A stretch of 64,000 nucleotides of DNA from Candidatus Marinacidobacterium sp. (GTDB taxonomy: Bacteria; Acidobacteriota; Vicinamibacteria; Marinacidobacterales; Marinacidobacteraceae): positions 2,048,001 to 2,112,000 of the forward strand of contig OZ244852.1 in NCBI GenBank assembly GCA_965220965.1. Reading direction: 5' to 3'. A model generated the notes under the pieces. The model was given only the letters and a program-made list of their open reading frames with translations. It did no database searches and was not told the origin of the DNA. Below are positions 6,090 to 64,000 of this stretch, piece by piece. The translations under genes were made by a program, and so were the position numbers. How positions within the stretch are numbered: position 1 is the stretch's first letter; the number at the start of each line of letters is the position of its first letter.

Positions 6090-7342
6090 CGGCCCCGTTG
6101 ATGGCGGTGGGCGACGACCTCCTCCGGGACGGGTTCGACGGCGTCCCGGTCGAGCGGCCGGGCGACGAAGACGAGGTCGCGGCGGCGCTCCGGACCGCTT
6201 CGGAGGCCGGCGAGGCCGTCGTCCTCCGCGGCGGGGGGACCCGGATGGATCTGGGCCGGCCGCCCTCGCGGGTCGACCGGGTGGTGGATCTCGGCCGCCT
6301 CGAAGGGATCATCGAGCACCACGTCGGCGACCTCACCGTGGAAGCGTGGGCCGGGACCACGGTCGCGGCGCTGAACGCCGCGCTCGCTCCCAGCGGGCAG
6401 TTCGCGGCGCTCGACCCGCCGCTCCCGGAGCGGGCCACACTGGGAGGGGTCATCGCCGCCGGCGAGCCGGGGATCCGCACGGTTCCCGGGGCCCGGCCCC
6501 GGGACGTCGTGCTGGGGCTGACCGCAGTTCTCTCCGACGGGACGCGGATCCGGTCCGGGGGGCGGGTCGTCAAGAACGTGACCGGCTACGAACTGAACAA
6601 GCTGTTCACCGGCTCGCTCGGGACGCTGGGCGCGATCACTCGGGTCACGCTGCGCTTGCGGGCGATCCCCGAGGCCTCGCGCACCGAGGTGTTCCGGCTT
6701 CAGGTCGAGGACTCCGCGGATGCGTTCGCCGACCGGGTGCTGGCCGCGGTCGGCGCGGCGCCCGGTCCCGCCGCGGCGGCGGTCGTCCCTCCGGGGACGG
6801 GGTCTCCCGGGCTGCCGGAAGACGGCGGATTCCGGCTCGCGGTGCGGTTCGAGGGGCTGCGGGAAGAGGCCGAGGTCCCCTCCGACGGAGTGGCCGACGC
6901 CGTGGGCGCCGCGGGAGAGGTCCTGGAGGACGGCTCGGCGCGCGAGTTCTGGGACGGGGTGCGCGACGGCGTCCTCTCGGTTCCGCGATCCACCGCCGCC
7001 CTCGGGGTGTCGGTCCGCGGACCGGCGGCCGCCGTGCTGCGTACCGCGTGGCGGCTGGCGGCGACCGGGCCGGCGTTCGCCTTCCCGGACCAGCGGCGCG
7101 CGGTGGCGAGCGTTCCTCCCGACGCGTTCGAAGCGGCGCGCGACCGGATCGAACCCGGCGTCGCGCTCGCGGTGGAATCCGCCCCTGCCGGGTGGAAGTC
7201 CGGCGGCGAGGTGTTCTGGCCTCCACCCCCCGCCGCGCTGGAAGCCCTGAACGCCCGGCTCAAGCGCGCCCTCGACCCGCGGGGCGTCCTCGCCCCCGGC
7301 CGCCTCGCCGGCGCCGGGGCAACGATGGAGGCGGCCTCGTGA
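6080..7342 (+). CDS. glcE: Glycolate oxidase FAD-binding subunit GlcE-like
   Basis: GGRVVKNVTGYELNKLFTGSLGTLG, terminal LDPRGVLAPGR. Lies between glcD and glcF. Confidence 0.88.
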   Translation: MDLAAPLMAVGDDLLRDGFDGVPVERPGDEDEVAAALRTASEAGEAVVLRGGGTRMDLGRPPSRVDRVVDLGRLEGIIEHHVGDLTVEAWAGTTVAALNAALAPSGQFAALDPPLPERATLGGVIAAGEPGIRTVPGARPRDVVLGLTAVLSDGTRIRSGGRVVKNVTGYELNKLFTGSLGTLGAITRVTLRLRAIPEASRTEVFRLQVEDSADAFADRVLAAVGAAPGPAAAAVVPPGTGSPGLPEDGGFRLAVRFEGLREEAEVPSDGVADAVGAAGEVLEDGSAREFWDGVRDGVLSVPRSTAALGVSVRGPAAAVLRTAWRLAATGPAFAFPDQRRAVASVPPDAFEAARDRIEPGVALAVESAPAGWKSGGEVFWPPPPAALEALNARLKRALDPRGVLAPGRLAGAGATMEAAS

Positions 7343-8694
7343 AGGACAACCACCCGGGCGCGCCGCCGTCCGCCGGAAACGGGCCCGCTTCGGCCCCCGC
7401 CGCCGGGCCGGAGCTTCCGCTCCACGGCGAGCTGGGACGCCTCTACGAGAAGACGCTCGCCTGTGTCCACTGCGGGCTGTGCCTGCCCGCCTGCCCCGCC
7501 TACGGCGAAGCGCCCCGCGAGTCGCTCGCGCCCCGGGGACAGGTCTACATCGCCCGCGCCGTCCTCGAAGGGCGGCTGGAGGCGGCCCCCGGGATCGCCG
7601 ACGACCTCTACGAGTGCCTGGCGTGCCGGGGGTGCGAGACGGTCTGCCCGGCGGGCGTCGAGGTCGGGACGATCGTCGAAGGGGTGCGCGGTCTGCTCGA
7701 CGAGAAGCGGGTCGAGCCCCGGTGGACGCGCTTCGCGCGCCGGCTGGCGCTCGGGGGCGTGGTGGCGCGGCCTCGAATGCTCCGGGTTGCGATGGCGGCG
7801 ATGCGCCTCGGGACGCGGCCCGGCGTGCGCCGCCTGGTGCGCCCCCTCCTTCGCCGTCTCGCCCCGGGGCTGGCTTCCCGCGAGAAGCTGCTTCCGGAGG
7901 TCCCTCCGGCGGAGCGCCTCCCGCGCCGGTTCCCGGCCCGCGGCGCTGCGCGGCGCGGCAAGGCGTTCCTGTTCCTCGGGTGCGTGGCGCCGCACCTGCG
8001 GCCCGAGACGACCCGGGCGGCCGGTGAAGCGCTGGCGCGCAACGGCTGGGAGGTGGAAGTCCCTCCGGCGCAGCGCTGCTGCGGGGCGCTCCACCTCCAC
8101 GCCGGGCTCCGCGATCAGGCTCAGCGGCTGGCCCGGCGCAACCTGGAGGCCTTCCCCGAGGGCGGCCCGGTGGTGACCACCGCCGCCGGTTGCGGCGCCG
8201 CGCTCTCCGAGTACGGGGAGCTCCTGACCGGAGACGACGCCGCCCGGACCTTCGGCGCCCGGATCACCGATGTCTCGGCGCTCCTCGCCCGGGAGGGGTT
8301 CGAGCCGCCGACCGCCGCGCCCGCCGACCGGCCGCTGCGGGCGGTCTACGACGCGCCCTGCCATCTGTTCCACGCGCAGAAGGTGCGCGACGAGCCGCTC
8401 GAAGTGCTGCGGAGCCTGCCCGGCGTCGAGCTCGCGCCGTTCCGCGACCCCGAGCGTTGCTGCGGCTCGGCCGGGATCTACAGCGTGACCCGGCACGAGA
8501 CCTCGATGGCGGTGCTCGACCGGAAGATGGAGGCGATCAGCCCGGCGAAGCCCGACCTGATCGCCACCGGCAACATCGGCTGCCACCTGCAATTGCGCGC
8601 CGGCGCGGAGCGCGCCGGGCTGGCCGCGGAGGTCGCCCATCCGGTCGAATTGCTGGCGCGGGCCTATCGAAGATCGGACGCGAAATCCGGTTGA
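7339..8694 (+). CDS. glcF: Glycolate oxidase Fe-S subunit GlcF-like
   Basis: Two CxxCxxCxxxCP motifs (CVHCGLCLPACP, CLACRGCETVCP) and two CCG domains. GTG start overlaps the glcE stop (GTGA). Confidence 0.88.
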   Translation: MKDNHPGAPPSAGNGPASAPAAGPELPLHGELGRLYEKTLACVHCGLCLPACPAYGEAPRESLAPRGQVYIARAVLEGRLEAAPGIADDLYECLACRGCETVCPAGVEVGTIVEGVRGLLDEKRVEPRWTRFARRLALGGVVARPRMLRVAMAAMRLGTRPGVRRLVRPLLRRLAPGLASREKLLPEVPPAERLPRRFPARGAARRGKAFLFLGCVAPHLRPETTRAAGEALARNGWEVEVPPAQRCCGALHLHAGLRDQAQRLARRNLEAFPEGGPVVTTAAGCGAALSEYGELLTGDDAARTFGARITDVSALLAREGFEPPTAAPADRPLRAVYDAPCHLFHAQKVRDEPLEVLRSLPGVELAPFRDPERCCGSAGIYSVTRHETSMAVLDRKMEAISPAKPDLIATGNIGCHLQLRAGAERAGLAAEVAHPVELLARAYRRSDAKSG

Positions 8695-57177: not shown

Positions 57178-57602
57178 GCGAAGAGTGTAGCGGCGGGGAG
57201 GCGGCGCCGGCGCCGGGAGATGAGCGCAGGGATCGTCCATGAAACCCCCGTTCCGCGTTCCACCCATTGAACCGGGACTGGCGGGTTTGTGGATGGGGCC
57301 GAAGGCCCGGATCCGGGATCCAGTTCCCCGAAGCGCGGCGACCGCAGCCTCTTCCGGCGCCCGGTAGAGGGTCCGAATCGCGATGCGCCGACAGCGCCCG
57401 GCGCTTCGTGTCCGGCCGGTCGGGTGGTGGGCCCACATGGCGGGAGCGGTCTCCGGGGCGCGCCCCTTGCGCCGAAAGGAGAACACCCGGGACGAGCCGC
57501 CCGGCGTCTTCCGAGGTCCCGGAATCCCCCGGAATTCAGGAAAGGCGACATCGCGGCTGTCCCGGGCCTTCTCTCATTCGCACAAAGGAGCGACACCATC
57601 CG

Positions 57603-60491
57603 ATGAAACCCCTTCCCCGACCCGTCCGCGCTCTCGCGGCCTTCGCCGCGCTGGCGCTCCTCGCGGGAGCCCCGGCGCTCGCGCAGACCTCCGGCGAGAT
57701 CGAAGGCCGGGTCACTGATTCCCAGGGGCTCGCCGCGCCAGGCGTGGTCGTGACCCTCTCCGGCGAGGCGCTCATCGCCCCGCAGACCGCCGTCACCCTG
57801 AGCGACGGCTCCTACCGCTTCCGCTCGCTGCGGCGCGGTTCCTACGACCTCCGCTTCGAGATCTCCGGGTTCTCCACTCTCGTCCGGGAGGGCGTCCTCG
57901 TCGAGGGCGGCCGCACGATCACGGTTCCGGCGATCCTCGAAGTGGCGACCGTCGCGGAGACCGTGACCGTCACCGGCGAAGCCCCGGTGGTCGACGTCCG
58001 GACCACCGCAATTTCGAACGACTTCGGCAGGGAGGAGCTCCACGACGTCCCCTCCGCCACCGATGTGTGGGCCGTCCTGGCCCAGACCCCGGGCGTGCGG
58101 ATGCGCGGTTACGACGTGGGGGGATCCCACAAGAGCCAGCAGACCGGCTACGAGAGCTTCGGCATCCGCAGCCAGAACCGCGTTCTCGCCGACGGCGTGG
58201 ACACGACCGAGGGCGAAGGCGGAACCGGCTTCTACTTCGACTACTACTCCATCGAGGAGTTCACGACCGCCGCGGCCGGGGCCGACGTGGAAATGACCGG
58301 CCCGGGATCGATGATCGTCATGACGATGAAGAGCGGCGGCAACGATTTCAGCAGCCTGCTTCACGGGGACTACGAGCCGGGCGCCTTCGTCGGAAACAAC
58401 ATCGACTCGGAACTCGAGGCCCGCAACTTCAGCGGGAACCCGAACCTGCTGTTCTGGGAGGCCCACGGGGATCTCGGCGGCCCGATCGTGAAGGACCGCG
58501 CGTGGTTCTACGGCTTCTACAACCACTTCCGGATCGACAAGCAGGTTTCCGGGGTGGACCCGGAGGTGGCCACCGACCTGGGCGACTTCGACCAGTTCGG
58601 CGGCAAGATCACCGCCGCCCCGACGACGAACGACCAGATCCTCCTCTACACGAACTACCAGCTCAAGCAGAAGCCGAAGCGGGGCCTGTCGAACACGATC
58701 GGCCCCGACTCGGTGCTCGCCCAGGACAGTTGGAGCTGGGCGCACAAGGCCGAGTGGCAGCGGGTCTGGGACGAACGCACGTTCACGACTCTGGCGGCCA
58801 AACACTTCGGGTTCGGGTGGCCGATGGTTCCCCAGGTGGACCCGGAGTCGAACCCACCGCGTTACGACCAGGCCACCAGCATTCTCAGCGGCGCCGGGTG
58901 GTTCAGTGGCGTAACCGGGGCGCCGCCGTTCACGTTCGAGCGCTGGAAGCCCCAGGTCACGGCGACCGCGAACCATTACGTCCCGGACTTCGGCGGCAGC
59001 CACGACTTCAAGGTGGGCTACGAGTTCCAGACGGACAGCCGCCGGTTCGGCGCGAACTCGAACTCGGGGCACATCCGCTACATCGACGACAGCTCCCAGG
59101 GGCGTCCGTTCGATGTGGACCAGATCGCGCTGTTCAGCATGCCGGCGGACGGCCAGATCGAGGCCGACTCGCGGAACACCCACCACGATGTCTTTGCGCA
59201 GGACACCTGGCGTCCTCATCGCCGGCTGACGCTGAACCTGGGCGTCCGTTACGGCCGTCAGCGGACGCACTTCCTGGCGTCGGAGTCGAATCCGCTCTTC
59301 GCCGACTTCTTCCCGACCGGCGAGACCGAGGGACAGACGCTCGTGGTCTGGGACACCTGGGCGCCGCGGGTCGGCGCGACGTACGAGATCTCGTCCGGCA
59401 GCGTGCTGAAGGCGCACTACGGGCGCTACTTCGTGAATCTCGCCGACGCCCACCGACGGGCTGACCCGGCGAACGTCGCGTGGATCCGGTTCGACTTCCT
59501 CGACCCGAACGGGAACGGGCTCTACGACGGACCGGCGGAACTCGGCGCGGTCCGCGCGACGTCCGGCGCCACCGGGACGGAACTGACGGCAATCGGCACC
59601 CCGGTGAACCCGGATCTCGAACAGGAATTTGTGGACGAGTTCAGTCTCTCGATCGAACACGAACTGGTCGAGGACACCGCGGTGCGCGCCTCGTGGGTCC
59701 AGAAGCGGCGCAACGCCGATAGCGGACAGTGGAACGCTCCCCAGCAGCTCGCATTGCTGAACGGCGAGGGAATCGCCTGCGGAACCGACTTCGACTGCCC
59801 GGTGAACGCGCTCACCGGAGCCCCGATCAACATCCAGCGGGTCCCCGATGCAGTGGCCGATGTCGTGGACATCGGAACCGACACGTTCCCCGGCATGGAG
59901 TCCCGATACGACACGATCCAGATCGCCACCGACCGCCGTTTCGCCGGCGGGTTCTTCATCCAGGCGAGTTTCGACTACCAGTGGCGCGATGAACACCGCG
60001 CCGCCGCCGGCGAATCCACCAGCCCGCTGACCGCCGACCCCATCGATGTGGGCTCCGACGGCCACGGAACCATCTGGCAGAACCACAGTCTGGACGTGGA
60101 CTTCCGGCAGAAGACCACGAACTGGAACGGCCGCCTGCTGGCCCGCTACGCCTTCGGCTGGGGCGCCGCGCTCTCCGCGAATCTGCGTTACCAGAGCGGC
60201 TGGCCGTGGGCCCCGATCCAGACGGTTTCGGTTCCCGGCTCCGGAACCCAGCGGGTGTTCCTTTCGAACCTGGACGAGAACCGGTCCGAAGACACGACGC
60301 TGCTGGACGTCCGGATCGAGAAGGCTTTCGACTTCGAGGGCGCGCAGCTCACCGCCATGCTGGATGTCTACAACGCCCTGAACTCGAACGCGGTCACGAA
60401 CTTCAACCTGCGCACCGGCGCGAACTACTACGACGTCATCGCGGCCCTCGATCCCCGGGCCGCCAAGGTGGGACTCCGCCTCACCTTCTGA
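57603..60491 (+). CDS. TonB-dependent receptor, Oar-like (carboxypeptidase-regulatory N-domain)
   Basis: AAAGGAG RBS, signal peptide ALA-Q, GRVTDSQG..PGV, ETVTVTGEAPVVD, KSGGN, LTLNLGVRY, terminal GLRLTF. Confidence 0.88.
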   Translation: MKPLPRPVRALAAFAALALLAGAPALAQTSGEIEGRVTDSQGLAAPGVVVTLSGEALIAPQTAVTLSDGSYRFRSLRRGSYDLRFEISGFSTLVREGVLVEGGRTITVPAILEVATVAETVTVTGEAPVVDVRTTAISNDFGREELHDVPSATDVWAVLAQTPGVRMRGYDVGGSHKSQQTGYESFGIRSQNRVLADGVDTTEGEGGTGFYFDYYSIEEFTTAAAGADVEMTGPGSMIVMTMKSGGNDFSSLLHGDYEPGAFVGNNIDSELEARNFSGNPNLLFWEAHGDLGGPIVKDRAWFYGFYNHFRIDKQVSGVDPEVATDLGDFDQFGGKITAAPTTNDQILLYTNYQLKQKPKRGLSNTIGPDSVLAQDSWSWAHKAEWQRVWDERTFTTLAAKHFGFGWPMVPQVDPESNPPRYDQATSILSGAGWFSGVTGAPPFTFERWKPQVTATANHYVPDFGGSHDFKVGYEFQTDSRRFGANSNSGHIRYIDDSSQGRPFDVDQIALFSMPADGQIEADSRNTHHDVFAQDTWRPHRRLTLNLGVRYGRQRTHFLASESNPLFADFFPTGETEGQTLVVWDTWAPRVGATYEISSGSVLKAHYGRYFVNLADAHRRADPANVAWIRFDFLDPNGNGLYDGPAELGAVRATSGATGTELTAIGTPVNPDLEQEFVDEFSLSIEHELVEDTAVRASWVQKRRNADSGQWNAPQQLALLNGEGIACGTDFDCPVNALTGAPINIQRVPDAVADVVDIGTDTFPGMESRYDTIQIATDRRFAGGFFIQASFDYQWRDEHRAAAGESTSPLTADPIDVGSDGHGTIWQNHSLDVDFRQKTTNWNGRLLARYAFGWGAALSANLRYQSGWPWAPIQTVSVPGSGTQRVFLSNLDENRSEDTTLLDVRIEKAFDFEGAQLTAMLDVYNALNSNAVTNFNLRTGANYYDVIAALDPRAAKVGLRLTF

Positions 60492-60502
60492 CTTCTTCCA
60501 CG

Positions 60503-60530
60503 GGCTGGCGGTCCTCCGGGGCCGCCAGCC
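60503..60530 (+). terminator. GC-rich hairpin after TonB receptor gene
   Basis: GGCTGGCGG (60503-60511) pairs with CCGCCAGCC (60522-60530), 11 nt after the stop. Weak U-tract. Confidence 0.55.
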
Positions 60531-60544
60531 TCCGTTCGCGTCCA

Positions 60545-60752
60545 GTGACAGGTTTCCGCCGGGTTCGCGTCCTGCGCAGGTGGGAGAGCCTCGCCCCCGC
60601 CCTGACCCACAGGATGCGGTCCGCTGGCTCCGGGAGGATCGGCAGGGACAGCAAGAGGCCGAGCGCCGCCGCATGTTCCCGCGCTGATCGGCCTCTTCGG
60701 CGCAGGGCTGATCGTGCTGGGGCAGTTCCTGCTCCAACGTCTCGCCGGGTGA
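60545..60752 (+). pseudogene. Collapsed relic unit of the tandem cassette array
   Basis: A diverged copy of the unit leader (GTGACAGGTTTCC...GGAGAGCC...CCCCGCCCTGAC) is joined directly to a diverged 3' end encoding VPALIGLFGAGLIVLGQFLLQRLAG*. The promoter and most of the CDS are missing. Confidence 0.75.
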
Positions 60753-60946
60753 AGACCCCGGGCGCTCCCGGCGGCGGCCCGAGAAACTGACAAAGCGCCG
60801 CCGGGTGGCAGGTTTCCGGCGACTTTGCGTCTTGCGTCTCTCGGAGAGCCCAGCCCCCGCCCTGACGCTCAGGTCGGACTGGCGGGCTCCCGGGAGGATC
60901 CGCATGAACACGAAGAAGCCCGCAGCCGCTGCCCAGGGCGCGCCGG

Positions 60947-60975
60947 TTGCCGTCGCGCAGGCACGTCCCTACACT
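60947..60975 (+). promoter_or_regulatory. Putative sigma70 promoter TTGCCG-N17-TACACT (unit 1; also 61705-61733, 62780-62808, 63663-63691)
   Basis: The same hexamers with exact 17-nt spacing occur in all four units, 33 nt before ATG-ACC-TCA. TACACT also precedes other genes in the window. Confidence 0.6.
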
Positions 60976-61008
60976 GGAGTTGAGCGACCCGCGCCGGTTC
61001 GACCCCCG

Positions 61009-61506
61009 ATGACCTCACCCCCGACGAAGCCGGAGCCGTCGCCGCCCACCTCGGCGCAGACGGCGGCGCGGGCGCTTGCCGAGGCCCCGGTTCCGCAGGA
61101 CGAGCTGACCCGGTGGCTCTACAGCACGCTGGATTCCCACCGGCTCGAAGCGCGCGAGGACCGTCGGGACATGGAGGGACGGCTGAACGAGCAGTTCTCC
61201 TCCGTCGATCGTCGGCTCTCCGTACTGGAGCGCCAAGGGGCCGCCGTGGAAGGCCGGCTCTCCGCGGTGGAAGGTCAGGTCGCCGAACACAGGGCCGAGA
61301 CCCGGGAGCAGTTCAAGGCGGTCAACGCCACCCTGAGCGAGCTCTGCGCGCGGATGGATCGCATGGAGGCGGCGTCGGCCGCCGAAAAGGAGCAGCGGGA
61401 CCGGCTATTCCGCGTCATCGCGTGGCTCGTTCCGGCCCTGATCGGCATCTTCGGGGTGGGGCTCGCTGTGTTCGGGCAGTTTCTGCTGCAGCGCCTCGCC
61501 GGCTGA
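61009..61506 (+). CDS. Tail-anchored coiled-coil protein, array copy 1 (165 aa)
   Basis: Head WLYSTLDSHRLEAREDRRDMEGRL, 4 VxxRLSx-type heptads, C-terminal TM VIAWLVPALIGIFGVGLAVFG. Alternative in-frame ATG at 60904 after GGAGG. Confidence 0.8.
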   Translation: MTSPPTKPEPSPPTSAQTAARALAEAPVPQDELTRWLYSTLDSHRLEAREDRRDMEGRLNEQFSSVDRRLSVLERQGAAVEGRLSAVEGQVAEHRAETREQFKAVNATLSELCARMDRMEAASAAEKEQRDRLFRVIAWLVPALIGIFGVGLAVFGQFLLQRLAG

Positions 61507-61766
61507 AGACTCCAGGCCACCGTCTCCCGGCGACGGCCCGAGAAACTGACAACGCGGCGCCGGGTGACAGGTTTCCGGCGGCGGTGCGTCTTGCTCCTGT
61601 CGGAGAGCCCAGCCCCCGCCCTGACACCCAGGTGCGGCACGCGGGCTCCGGGAGCATCCGCATGGACACGAAGAAGCCCACAGCCGTTGCCCAGGGCCCG
61701 CCGGTTGCCGCCGCACAGGCCCGGCCCTACACTGGAGTCAAGCCGCCTGCGCTGGTTCAACCCCCG

Positions 61767-62381
61767 ATGACCTCACCCCCGAAGAAGCCGGAGCAGTCGT
61801 CGCCGACCCCCGCGCGGGCGCTTACCGAGGCTCCCGTTCCGCAGGACGGGCTCGGTCTGTGGCTCTACAGCGCGCTGGATTCCCAGCGGCTCGAAGCCCG
61901 CGAGGAGCGTCGGGACATGGAGGGGCGACTGAACGAGCGCTTCTCGGAACTCGGCGGCAAGGTCTCCTCCGTCGATCGCCGGCTCTCCGCCGTCGAACGC
62001 CAGGGGGCCGCGGTGGAAGGCCGGCTCTCCGGGGTGGAAGGCCGGCTCTCCGCCGTTGAGACTGGGCTCGCCGAACTTGGGAAGCGACTCGACCACCAGG
62101 GCGCCGAACTCCGAGGGCACATTGACAGCCAAATCAGCGAGCTCAGAGGGCAAATCGACAACCTCAGAGAAGAGACTCGCGCCGATCGGAACGCCATCGT
62201 CGCCACCCTGAGCGAGCTCTGCGCACGGCTCGACCGCATGGAGGCGGCCTCGGCCGCCGAGAAGGAGCAACGGGACCGGCGGTGGCGCGTGATCGCGTGG
62301 CTCGTTCCCGCCCTGATCGGCATCTTCGGGGTGGGGCTCGCTGTGTTCGGGCAGTTCCTGCTGCAACGCCTCGCCGGCTGA
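61767..62381 (+). CDS. Tail-anchored coiled-coil protein, array copy 2 (204 aa)
   Basis: Same head and anchor. The stalk has extra heptads plus 11-residue repeats (LGKRLDHQGAE, LRGHIDSQISE). Alternative ATG at 61662. Confidence 0.8.
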   Translation: MTSPPKKPEQSSPTPARALTEAPVPQDGLGLWLYSALDSQRLEAREERRDMEGRLNERFSELGGKVSSVDRRLSAVERQGAAVEGRLSGVEGRLSAVETGLAELGKRLDHQGAELRGHIDSQISELRGQIDNLREETRADRNAIVATLSELCARLDRMEAASAAEKEQRDRRWRVIAWLVPALIGIFGVGLAVFGQFLLQRLAG

Positions 62382-62387
62382 ACACCC

Positions 62388-62413
62388 GGGCCGCCGTCTC
62401 CCGGCGGCGGCCC
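62388..62413 (+). terminator. Hairpin following array genes (best copy; variants after each stop)
   Basis: GGGCCGCCG (62388-62396) pairs with CGGCGGCCC (62405-62413) immediately after the stop codon. No U-tract on the + strand. Confidence 0.5.
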
Positions 62414-62516
62414 GAGAAACTGACAACGCGGCGCCGGGTGGCAGATTTCCGCCGGCTTTGCGTCTTGCTCCTGTCGGAGAGCCCACCCCCCGCCCTGACG
62501 CTCAGGTCCGGCGTTA

Positions 62517-62716
62517 GCAACCTGTTGACGAAGTCACGCGGCCCGGTTCTCCCGGTAGGGGCTCGAGCGGCGATCCATCCCGCCCGAACCGCGCCCCTTC
62601 GGGGCGCTCATCGTTGCGTTTCGCTCGGAATATTCCCGATATTCCTCGCTCACGCGCCTTGTCGGCCGGGCGCCTCACCGCTCTCGGCGCTGCACGGGAC
62701 TTCATCAACAGGCTGC
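62517..62716. mobile_element. 200-bp MITE-like element with 19-bp terminal inverted repeats
   Basis: Left end GCAACCTGTTGACGAAGTC and right end GACTTCATCAACAGGCTGC are complementary at 17 of 19 positions. Absent at the homologous site of the other three units. No transposase ORF. Confidence 0.8.
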
Positions 62717-62841
62717 CGGCTCCCGGGAGCACCCGCATGGACACGAGGAAGCCCACGGCCGCTGCCCAGGGCGCGCCGGTTGCCGCCGCCCAGGCCCGGC
62801 CCTACACTGGAGTTAAGCGGCCTGCGCTGGTTCAACCCCCG

Positions 62842-63465
62842 ATGACCTCACCCCCGAAGAAGCCGGAGCCGTCGCCGCCCACTTCGGCGCGGACGGCGGC
62901 GCGACCGCTCGCCGAGGCCCCGGTTACCCAGGACGGGCTGACCCGGTGGCTCTACAGCGCGCTGGATTCCCACCGGCTCGAAGCCCGCGAGGACCGTCGG
63001 GACATGGAGGGGCGGCTGAACGAGCAGTTCTCCTCCGTTGATCGCCGGCTTTCCGCAGTCGAACGCCAGGGGTCCGCGGTGGACAGCCGGCTCTCCGCAG
63101 TGGACGGCCGAGTCTCCACAGTTGAAGGTCGGCTCTCGAAGGTAGAGAACCGGCTCTCGAAGGTAGAGAACCGGCTCTCGGCTGTGGAAGGCCGGCTCTC
63201 CGCAGTGGAAGGCCGGCTCTCCGCGGTTGAGGGCCAGCTCGCCGAACACAGGGCCGAGACCCGGGAGGAGTTCAAGGCGGTCAACGCCACCCTCAGCCAA
63301 ATCTGCGCGAGGCTCGACCGCATGGAGGCGGCCTCGGCCGCCGAGAAGGAGCAGCGGGACCGGAGGTGGCGTGTGATCGCGTGGCTCGTTCCGGCCCTGA
63401 TCGGCATCTTCGGGGTGGGGTTCGCTGTGTTCGGGCAGTTCCTACTGCAACGCCTCGCCGGCTGA
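62842..63465 (+). CDS. Tail-anchored coiled-coil protein, array copy 3 (207 aa)
   Basis: Colinear with copy 1 but with 10 heptads (VEGRLSA/VENRLSK type), exactly 126 nt longer. Alternative ATG at 62737. Confidence 0.8.
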   Translation: MTSPPKKPEPSPPTSARTAARPLAEAPVTQDGLTRWLYSALDSHRLEAREDRRDMEGRLNEQFSSVDRRLSAVERQGSAVDSRLSAVDGRVSTVEGRLSKVENRLSKVENRLSAVEGRLSAVEGRLSAVEGQLAEHRAETREEFKAVNATLSQICARLDRMEAASAAEKEQRDRRWRVIAWLVPALIGIFGVGFAVFGQFLLQRLAG

Positions 63466-63724
63466 ACACCCGGGCCGCCGTCTCCCGGCGACGGCCCAAG
63501 AAACTGACAAAGCGCCGCCGGGTGGCAGGTTTCCGGCGACTTTGCGTCTTGCGTCTCTCGGAGAGCCCAGCCCCCGCCCTGACACCCAGGTGCGGCACGC
63601 GGGCTCCGGGAGCATCCGCATGGACACGAAGAAGCCCACGGCCGTTGCCCAGGGCGCGCCGGTTGCCGCCGCCCAGGCCCGGCCCTACACTGGAGTTGAC
63701 GAAATCGCGCCGGTTCGAACTCCG

Positions 63725-64000
63725 ATGACCTCACCCCCGACGAAGCCGGAGCCGTCGCCGCCCACCTCGGCGCAGACGGCGGCGCGGACGCTCGCCGAGG
63801 CTCCGGTTCCCCAGGACGGGCTGACCCGGTGGCTCTACAGCGCGCTGGATTCCCACCGGCTCGAAGCGCGCGAGGACCGTCGGGACATGGAGGGGCGGCT
63901 GAACGAGCAGTTCTCCTCCGTCGATCGCCGGCTCTCCGCCGTCGAACGCCAGGGGGCCGCGGTGGACAGCCGGCTCTCCGGAGTGGAAGGCCGGCTCTCC
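63725..64000 (+). CDS. Tail-anchored coiled-coil protein, array copy 4 (3' truncated by window edge)
   Basis: MTSPPTKPEPSPPTSAQTAAR...WLYSALDSHRLEAREDRRDMEGRLNEQFSSVDRRLSA..., open to the window end. Confidence 0.8.
   Translation, partial: MTSPPTKPEPSPPTSAQTAARTLAEAPVPQDGLTRWLYSALDSHRLEAREDRRDMEGRLNEQFSSVDRRLSAVERQGAAVDSRLSGVEGRLS

Follow-up and report, generated by a model that had tools for sequence, protein, structure and literature searches.

A tandem gene array encoding tail-anchored proteins with stalks of differing length in Candidatus Marinacidobacterium sp.

The described systems closest to the locus reported here are the CCDC90-like/DUF1640 family (PF07798; MCUR1, CCDC90B and prokaryotic homologues), the Bdr proteins of Borrelia, and the YqjD/ElaB/YgaM proteins (DUF883). 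The locus itself is a tandem array of genes for tail-anchored proteins with repeat-built stalks, and was recognized at the end of a 64,000-nucleotide stretch of contig OZ244852.1 from Candidatus Marinacidobacterium sp. (phylum Acidobacteriota; GenBank assembly GCA_965220965.1, positions 2,048,001 to 2,112,000), which is called the window throughout. The source genome (G000, with the window at G000:C1:2048001-2112000) comprises 3.25 Mb in two contigs, with a G+C content of about 72%. Proteins of the CCDC90-like/DUF1640 family are small, lack a signal peptide, and carry a repeat-built coiled-coil stalk followed by a single C-terminal transmembrane (TM) helix that begins with Trp, all of which is true of the window family as well, but the latter is without the DUF1640 head and has instead an N-terminus that is Pro-rich and predicted to be disordered. 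The CCDC90 family was reportedly described by Adlakha et al. in 2019 in terms of a head, neck, stalk and anchor, with a homo-trimeric stalk and a beta-layer neck.

Bdr proteins possess a C-terminal membrane anchor. They are specified by paralogous genes with internal direct repeats, the number of which varies among paralogues and strains; their function is given as unknown, and the genes lie scattered on spirochaete plasmids and cp32 prophages (PMC3303823). The window genes also hold internal repeats (21- and 33-nt arrays) that vary between units, but they are chromosomal, arranged in strict head-to-tail arrays and flanked by housekeeping genes, and the likeness between the two groups is one of description. 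Of the likeness to Bdr drawn in the initial annotation of the window, the variation in repeat number among paralogues and strains stands, while the genomic setting does not correspond. The YqjD/ElaB/YgaM proteins are helical paralogues held in the inner membrane by their C-terminal tail, with Pro, Trp and Gly conserved in the TM helix, and their N-terminus binds and inactivates the 50S subunit (10.1101/2024.08.16.608256). The rods of the window family are much longer than these, repeat-variable, and encoded in tandem arrays.

The array and its proteins

Repeat finding, open reading frame (ORF) listing, and a six-frame motif scan located the array at 60492-66568 in extended coordinates (L001 coordinate + 58000), where a relic (U0) is followed by six complete head-to-tail genes (U1 to U6), with unit borders fixed by stop codons (Table 1). 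The initial annotation had placed at least four units and a relic here. Repeat finding and ORF listing agree on the position, and the motif scan together with the extended contig, an extension that had been proposed as a check, revealed that the array continues past the window end, which cuts U4 and leaves U5 and U6 wholly outside. The array is confirmed as real, and is larger than first noted. Between 60.5 kb and the end of the window there are five occurrences of a 76-nt leader piece, and four each of a 300-nt N-terminal/head piece and a 91-nt tail piece, with 21-nt periodic repeats within the genes. Inside the genes, Tandem Repeats Finder (TRF) recorded arrays of period 21, with 3.5-9.6 copies, and of period 33, with 4.2 and 5.7 copies, which agrees with the earlier statement that the stalk changes by whole repeats. 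The relic has no in-frame start, and consists only of leader piece D6 and tail piece D7, the internal part having been deleted.

The assembly was checked against de Bruijn contigs (unitigs) of two public sequencing runs, X1 and X2, while two others (X3 and X4) covered only parts of the array. Depths in X1, which are not copy numbers, were 125 and 106 for the flanks, 110-120 for five unique stalk pieces, and 324 for a piece common to the three type-B heads; the same 1:1:3 pattern was seen in X2 at 3-10x. The best-matching runs may be the source sample itself. Short-read unitigs break throughout the array, as is expected of repeats, and the depths fit single-copy units, a matter of consistency rather than proof.

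A search of the genome with U3 recovered two more clusters of family genes, which form a subfamily B beside the subfamily A of the main array: three tandem genes (188, 266 and 370 aa) at C1:170.7-173.6 kb, and one 201-aa gene with a second copy, split by a fragment of a miniature inverted-repeat transposable element (MITE), at C1:1717-1719 kb. In total, the genome carries 11 family genes, spread over three tandem arrays. With 39-42% identity to U1, the subfamily B proteins have the whole layout in common with it, namely a Pro/Ala-rich N-terminus of 53-68 aa, a short hydrophobic head, a stalk of heptads and hendecads, a neck and basic patch, and a C-terminal TM helix. The alignment that spans both subfamilies reads M-x-x...VA...RPYT(G/E), an invariant second Met, a Pro-rich stretch to PVPQD, head, stalk, EQRDR and TM. 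The conserved head, Cys-containing neck, basic patch and GQFLLQRLAG tail were found as first described (with the variant GHFLLQRLAG in U5, and GQFLLQ as the end of U6), except that the neck Cys is a feature of subfamily A and is not conserved in the alignment of subfamily B. Likewise, the protein lengths first given (165, 204 and 207 aa) are exact when counted from the second of two start codons.

What varies most visibly is the rod. Its length was measured from PVPQD to the TM Trp in ten rods, one per gene, the MITE-split copy being left out, and came to 106, 113, 148, 149, 164 and 179 residues in subfamily A, and 94, 120, 171 and 274 residues in subfamily B. All ten rods thus differ (94-274 residues), with an N-terminus (53-68 aa) and tail (28 aa) of nearly constant size; if fully helical, at 0.15 nm per residue, the rods would measure about 14-41 nm. 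An AlphaFold2 model of U1, built from the ten-sequence alignment, had a mean predicted local distance difference test (pLDDT) score of 73, with low confidence for residues 1-60, and a single unbroken helix over residues 65-199, TM included, the helix blocks of which scored 81-90. The low confidence suggests that the N-terminal 60 or so residues may be disordered. Together, alignment, rod lengths and modelled helix bear out the tail-anchored, helical-rod architecture. The heptad consensus is R-L-S-A-V-E-G, with Leu and Val at core positions, and in the TM helix W174, A178, G181, G184, G186 and G191 are invariant, while P177 is kept in at least 90% of the sequences. The heptads and the invariant Gly zipper suggest parallel oligomers. 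A signal peptide is absent from the family proteins, and the TM helix is preceded by an R/K-rich flank, with five basic residues before it and one after; because of these two features, the second read by the positive-inside rule, the rods should be cytoplasmic, with only about five residues outside.

Nei-Gojobori estimates among U1 to U6 gave, for the neck and TM block, synonymous divergence (dS) of 0.22-0.59 and nonsynonymous-to-synonymous ratios (omega) of 0.05-0.53; omega was 0-0.46 in the head, for pairs with dS > 0, and 0.11-0.89 in the Pro-rich part. All six genes are open. With dS of 0.22-0.59 and omega below 1, the copies are not fresh duplicates, and are constrained as proteins by purifying selection, as had been supposed. 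They are also mosaics. Head DNA is identical (dS 0) among U2, U5 and U6, whose neck and TM blocks differ at dS 0.32-0.51, and typing of three modules per unit showed each of the four possible combinations of leader with head, and likewise of head with neck, which requires recombination and upholds the earlier proposal that the units diversified in this way. The TM blocks of the interior units U1 to U5 are 90-96% identical, whereas identity to these falls to 72-81% for U0 and U6 at the edges (72-76% for U0), which are 81% identical to each other. Tandem arrays that evolve in concert usually show this pattern of a homogenised interior with diverged edges. Differences in stalk length extend to strains or species, since P0006, a variant of a gene of the congener G002, lacks 13 stalk residues that the G002 gene has.

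The MITE-like element is about 200-260 bp long, has terminal inverted repeats GCAACCTGTTGACGAAGTC..., and gave 57 BLAST high-scoring segment pairs genome-wide; its unitigs reach very high depths in three runs (about 18,900 at most, in X3). Three copies lie in the main array, two of them at the same leader position; the third, additional to those in Table 1, is at L001 ~7650-7860. The fragment that divides the subfamily B gene is at L013 6250-6325. Next to this split gene, at L013 ~7090-7196, there is a second copy of the last 35 or so codons of the adjacent M23-peptidase gene, which suggests a local duplication or rearrangement.

Table 1. Features of the main array and its left flank, in window positions (those beyond 64000 are extended coordinates).
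Feature	Position	Strand	Description
TonB-dependent-receptor-like outer-membrane protein gene	57267..60491	+	Left flank, outside the array; OMP_b-brl_4, CarboxypepD_reg and TonB_dep_Rec_b-barrel matches; 90% identical orthologue in G002
U0 relic	60492..60752	+	Leader fragment with a Shine-Dalgarno-like site, fused to last ~25 codons (TM tail ...GQFLLQRLAG, stop)
U1 gene	60904..61506	+	200 aa from ATG1; 165 aa from ATG2 at 61009; rod 106 residues, ~4 heptads
U1 sigma-70-like promoter motif TTGCCG-N17-TACACT	60947..60975	+	Within the ATG1-ATG2 stretch
U2 gene	61662..62381	+	239 aa from ATG1; 204 aa from ATG2 at 61767; promoter motif 61705-61733; type-B head, heptads and hendecads, rod 149 residues
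MITE-like dispersed repeat with terminal inverted repeats	62508..62712	+	In U3 leader, upstream of ATG1
U3 gene	62737..63465	+	242 aa from ATG1; 207 aa from ATG2 at 62842; promoter motif 62780-62808; ten heptads (TRF period 21, 9.6 copies), rod 148 residues
U4 gene	63620..64396 (window ends at 64000)	+	258 aa from ATG1; 223 aa from ATG2 at 63725; promoter motif 63663-63691; rod 164 residues
U5 gene	64552-65163 (L001 6552-7163)	+	203 aa from ATG1; 168 aa from ATG2; rod 113 residues; promoter motif 64595-64623
Further MITE copy	65291-65552 (L001 7291-7552)		In array
U6 TTGCCA-N17-TACACT	65614-65642	+	With Shine-Dalgarno-ATG1, severed from the gene by second MITE copy
U6 gene	65876-66568 (L001 7876-8568)	+	230 aa from ATG2; rod 179 residues; C-terminal end GQFLLQ

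Start codons and the leader motif

The initial annotation described a conserved, 255-bp leader before each gene. A conserved leader piece does exist, but it is not all non-coding, as it contains an in-frame start codon (ATG1) 105 nt upstream of the start first noted (ATG2). ATG1 is preceded at 7-9 nt by a Shine-Dalgarno (SD) sequence, GGGAG(G/C), or GGAGG in subfamily B, which is also present in one G002 gene; strong SD sequences are uncommon in the genome as a whole, where 14.5% of first ATGs have one versus 5.4% of control positions. Public gene calls for U1 to U5 start at ATG1 (200, 239, 242, 258 and 203 aa), and ATG2 encodes Met36, invariant in the alignment. Two nested starts are likely.

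In an alignment of 11 leaders, drawn from four diverged lineages (subfamilies A and B and the two single genes of G002), the longest invariant runs were GGTTGC (CGGTTGC[CG]G allowing one C/G column) and CCTACACTG, separated by a spacer that varies in sequence but is always 17 nt long. This promoter-like motif is the only leader DNA conserved across the four lineages. It lies between SD-ATG1 and ATG2, inside the ORF predicted by gene callers. The form first reported, TTGCCG-N17-TACACT, is present in U1 to U5, and U6 has TTGCCA; all ten occurrences of TTGC[CG]G-N17-TACACT in the genome belong to this family. A promoter scan under a stricter rule reported only the U6 version, against 0.1 expected. 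The motif imposes rare codons (in 545 long ORFs, 5.3% of Val is encoded by GTT and 2.1% of Thr by ACT), and the constraint acts on DNA, not protein, because the residue before Val alternates between Pro, Ala and Ser while the last two bases of its codon, CG, stay fixed. It follows from the conserved, family-specific motif that each unit probably has its own promoter, in line with the separate transcription previously proposed, and the RPYTG 'protein motif' is probably in reality a -10 element. Whether the ATG1-ATG2 stretch is translated is left undecided by its G+C content at third codon positions, 0.69-0.77 versus 0.83-0.87 downstream. In U6, a MITE parts ATG1 and promoter from the gene, which is still open and has an omega of 0.32-0.53 in the neck and TM block.

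A hairpin after each gene, claimed earlier, found little backing, since the terminator scan returned two terminator-like sites where 3.0 were expected, neither of them after a gene, and so no intrinsic terminator follows any array gene. The leader showed no unusual structure on RNA folding (z -1.48, with one compensatory pair among 48), by which a structured leader RNA was ruled out, and the array gave no Rfam match at E ≤ 0.1.

Distribution and genomic neighbourhood

When 5.8 billion proteins were searched by a word index, the only matches were the five proteins of the window itself. A profile hidden Markov model (HMM) of the last 70 residues, made from 12 sequences and run against 1.84 billion representatives, gave nine matches at E ≤ 0.001 and four at E ≤ 1e-10, all four of this family: the window cluster, a 47-aa subfamily B fragment, and variants of two G002 genes. 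The best of the weak outside matches was P0012, a 103-aa tail-anchored protein. The module occurred in two of the 55 genomes of the order, G000 and G002, and in two of 401 sampled genomes of the phylum, one being G000 and the other a 26.5-bit match; it was not found in the third member of the genus, G001 (120 contigs, 92% complete). None of 31 candidate stretches on viral contigs was confirmed as belonging to the family. Matches on genome contigs were rejected as relatives, as only two of 87 candidates were confirmed, and these cover just 32 and 15 TM residues. Nothing relevant was found in the literature on tandem arrays of tail-anchored coiled-coil proteins, although this does not prove that none is in print. 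On these searches, the family is new and restricted to the genus.

No recombinase, phage gene or conserved partner gene was found in the flanks of any family locus; a search for a recombinase or partner gene had been proposed as a check in the initial annotation. The flanks across loci hold ordinary genes, specifying TonB-dependent-receptor-like proteins, an FG-GAP/UnbV protein, a TPR protein, transketolase, a radical-SAM enzyme, a DUF885 protein, an M23 peptidase, and a MacB-type permease. Orthologues of the main-array flanks are present in both congeners (the receptor 89-90% identical and the right-hand protein 66-67%), where they lie 2.8 and 3.4 kb apart, compared with 6.2 kb in G000, in which the array fills the gap. 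The congener gap (G002:C1:3707600-3711400; G001:C33:11300-14500) is filled by other genes, a hemerythrin-like gene, a lipoprotein gene, and a metalloprotease-like gene (HEIGHCLGLAH), so that the array at this locus is species-specific and recent there.

Several further observations were made in these regions. The G002 gap also holds a small N-anchored protein with three AQVREEV heptads. Two paralogous CarboxypepD_reg/TonB-dependent-receptor-like genes bracket the main array, the left-hand one listed in Table 1 and the other at L001 13012-16098; they belong to a large family, with 14 matches in each congener. One G002 family gene ends about 95 bp from a tRNA-Pro gene (L019 1306-1380), and the other adjoins an ORF that by eye resembles a PIN-domain gene (L017 1652-2173).

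Proposed role, rival readings and significance

The explanation that best accounts for the data as a package, and to which we give slightly better than an even chance, is that of a lineage-restricted, recently expanded family of tail-anchored inner-membrane proteins, the graded rods of which act as spacers or tethers. The specific spacer role, taken alone, would be much less probable than the package. The arrays evolve by unequal crossing-over and gene conversion, giving mosaics, a homogenised interior and diverged edges, and in-frame gain and loss of repeats in the stalk adds length variation, all of it under purifying selection. A long form, driven by the SD sequence, would be translated from upstream or read-through transcripts, and a sigma-70-type promoter belonging to each unit would yield a short form from ATG2, such that a unit produces both forms or the short one only. 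The rods would face the cytoplasm, oligomerise via the stalk and the TM Gly zipper, and present the Pro-rich tip and head to a cytoplasmic partner at a graded series of distances from the membrane. A spacer or tether role is suggested because the paralogues differ systematically only in rod length and, within subfamily A, in having one of two types of head, whereas tip and anchor are conserved within each subfamily.

A number of observations weigh against this explanation. No conserved neighbour or partner gene indicates a function. By Fourier analysis, which over whole rods is too crude to tell a heptad from a hendecad register, hydrophobic periodicity was only moderate (z up to 5.9, with several rods near 0), and the rods of subfamily B are 46-47% charged, such that parts of them may be single alpha-helices and not coiled coils. 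The ATG1-ATG2 stretch is in frame in all four lineages despite differences in length, which argues that it is also translated, and that the picture of an own promoter and a short protein is incomplete. The conserved DNA motif could be the site of a regulator instead of a promoter, given that the scan criteria accept only the version in U6. Lastly, with three MITE insertions in the main array and one split gene elsewhere, parts of the arrays could be decaying.

The closest rival is that the family is a diverged CCDC90-like/DUF1640 branch with a swapped head, doing the job of DUF1640 in this lineage, which we regard as unlikely, though with an appreciable share of the probability. Five of the six units (U2 to U6; U1 was not listed) match PF07798 below its gathering cut-off of 33.5 bits, with 14-21 bits (best 21.0, U4), and only over model positions 74-171. 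When all of G000 was searched, the array units were its sole PF07798-like matches (best 19.6 bits, none above the cut-off), and the genome has no bona fide DUF1640 protein at E ≤ 0.001. Of 41 relatives, 11 encode such proteins; every one of these belongs to the same bacterial family, the order's other two families being without them, and both congeners have full-length members (57.5 and 45.4 bits). They display an FDTxxFVK head, 11-mer stalks of varying copy number, and a Trp-initiated TM helix, and some occur in tandem sets: of the six matches in G015, at least five lie within 4 kb (G015:C1:1814410-1818312), and three are found together in G011 (G011:C1:521115-522401). Searches of the ESM Atlas returned unannotated coiled-coil clusters (scores 0.88-0.91), which are leads only, and one lead at 0.88 was a 'putative DUF1640' cluster. 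However, the scores against PF07798 are far under the cut-off, the DUF1640 head (model positions ~1-70, with the motif FDTxxFVKxL..AG..E in relatives) is absent from the window family, and hhalign of the family profile with eight DUF1640 proteins of relatives aligned only 21 TM columns, the probability being 76% when the full-length profile was used and 2% for the C-terminal one. Coiled-coil and TM segments match through composition alone. With the head absent and the score below the cut-off, the window family does not, by sequence comparison, belong to CCDC90/DUF1640; of the likeness proposed initially, the architecture of a coiled-coil stalk followed by a single C-terminal TM anchor holds, and membership does not.

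Other readings are less probable. A tether or hibernation factor for the ribosome or another particle, binding through its Pro-rich N-terminus by analogy with YqjD/ElaB/YgaM, would fit the shared topology (no signal peptide, helical body, TM helix with conserved Pro, Trp and Gly) and the Pro-rich, putatively disordered tips, but it has a low probability, as DUF883 does not appear in the Pfam results at E ≤ 1 for U1, U2, U4 and U5, nor among the matches listed for U3 and U6, the rods are far longer than those of the YqjD type, and RPYTG overlaps a DNA motif conserved at synonymous sites and so may not be a protein motif. Similarly little credence is given to an origin in phages or a role against them (superinfection exclusion, an XhlA-like holin accessory, or defence), diversified in an arms race. 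Tandem, fast-diversifying paralogues could be read in this way, as could weak PHROG matches ('hol-like' phrog_25947 in five of ten members, and 'hemolysin'/XhlA phrog_937 in two of ten, best E 1.6e-4) and the tail-anchored P0012, but PADLOC matches were coiled-coil noise (SMC, ZorA, JetC), the flanks are of housekeeping type, without integrase or phage genes, the viral-contig candidates all failed, and it is length that has diversified, while the tips are under purifying selection. The suggested XhlA-type link was not sustained. Searches of Pfam, NCBIfam, PHROGs, PADLOC and the PDB gave only sub-threshold matches of coiled-coil type, except for DUF7310 with U3 alone (41.6 versus a cut-off of 40), which was set aside as repeat-driven. 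Periplasmic (N-out) rods that set or span envelope distances, as do Lpp and TolA, are very unlikely. The array lies between outer-membrane receptor loci, related genomes carry N-anchored heptad arrays with coils that are presumably periplasmic, and Pro-rich tips are reminiscent of TonB-type spacers, but there is no signal peptide, the basic residues are concentrated before the TM helix, and we know of no signal-less route across the membrane for a charged N-terminal domain of 170-340 residues. The slightest probability goes to an assembly artefact or decaying, functionless repeats: the breaks in short-read unitigs, the MITEs, the relic and the split gene would be in keeping with this, but unique stalk pieces at flank depth and a three-unit piece at about three times that depth in two runs, six open genes with omega well below 1, and the same architecture conserved in a second species (G002) all speak against it.

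The package of a recently expanded family with graded rods therefore remains our preferred explanation. Its boldest form makes the 11 genes a deliberately graded set of cytoplasmic 'distance pegs', about 14-41 nm long, which would display one and the same Pro-rich tip and head at differing heights over the inner membrane as a bacterial counterpart of tail-anchored tethers. The pegs would stand in for DUF1640, missing from this genome but present in both congeners, and a nested promoter would give two isoforms. This form is improbable, less so than the ribosomal and phage readings but more so than a DUF1640 branch. The claim of a new system is partly supported: the family is new, but the same theme is present in sister genomes, as tandem DUF1640 genes and as sets of N-anchored heptad proteins, and it fits a kind of system that is already known, that of paralogous membrane-anchored coiled-coil proteins with repeat-length variation. 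The N-anchored proteins have in common with the window family a membrane anchor, a variable coil and a tandem array, but the anchor is at the opposite end and the coil is probably periplasmic; similarity between them is at the level of coiled coils only (best E 8e-11, over repeats). In G015, of a distinct genus in the same bacterial family as G000, seven such head-to-tail genes (133-172 aa) lie on the minus strand (G015:C1:1850001-1866000, L014 5774-10372), and their products differ by heptad number.

The practical value of these findings will be modest until a function or a partner is found. The nested promoter serves as a warning for annotation, in that a conserved 'protein motif', RPYTG, is probably a -10 element. 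If the preferred explanation is true, the arrays would be a clean natural case of a bacterium keeping a length series of one membrane-anchored rod, with evolution by repeat slippage, gene conversion and unequal crossing-over visible in them, and they could inform the function of prokaryotic DUF1640 proteins. One bacterial family holds three unrelated or barely related versions of the theme, the window family, DUF1640, and the N-anchored heptad proteins, which suggests that length-graded membrane rods meet a real, unstudied cellular need.

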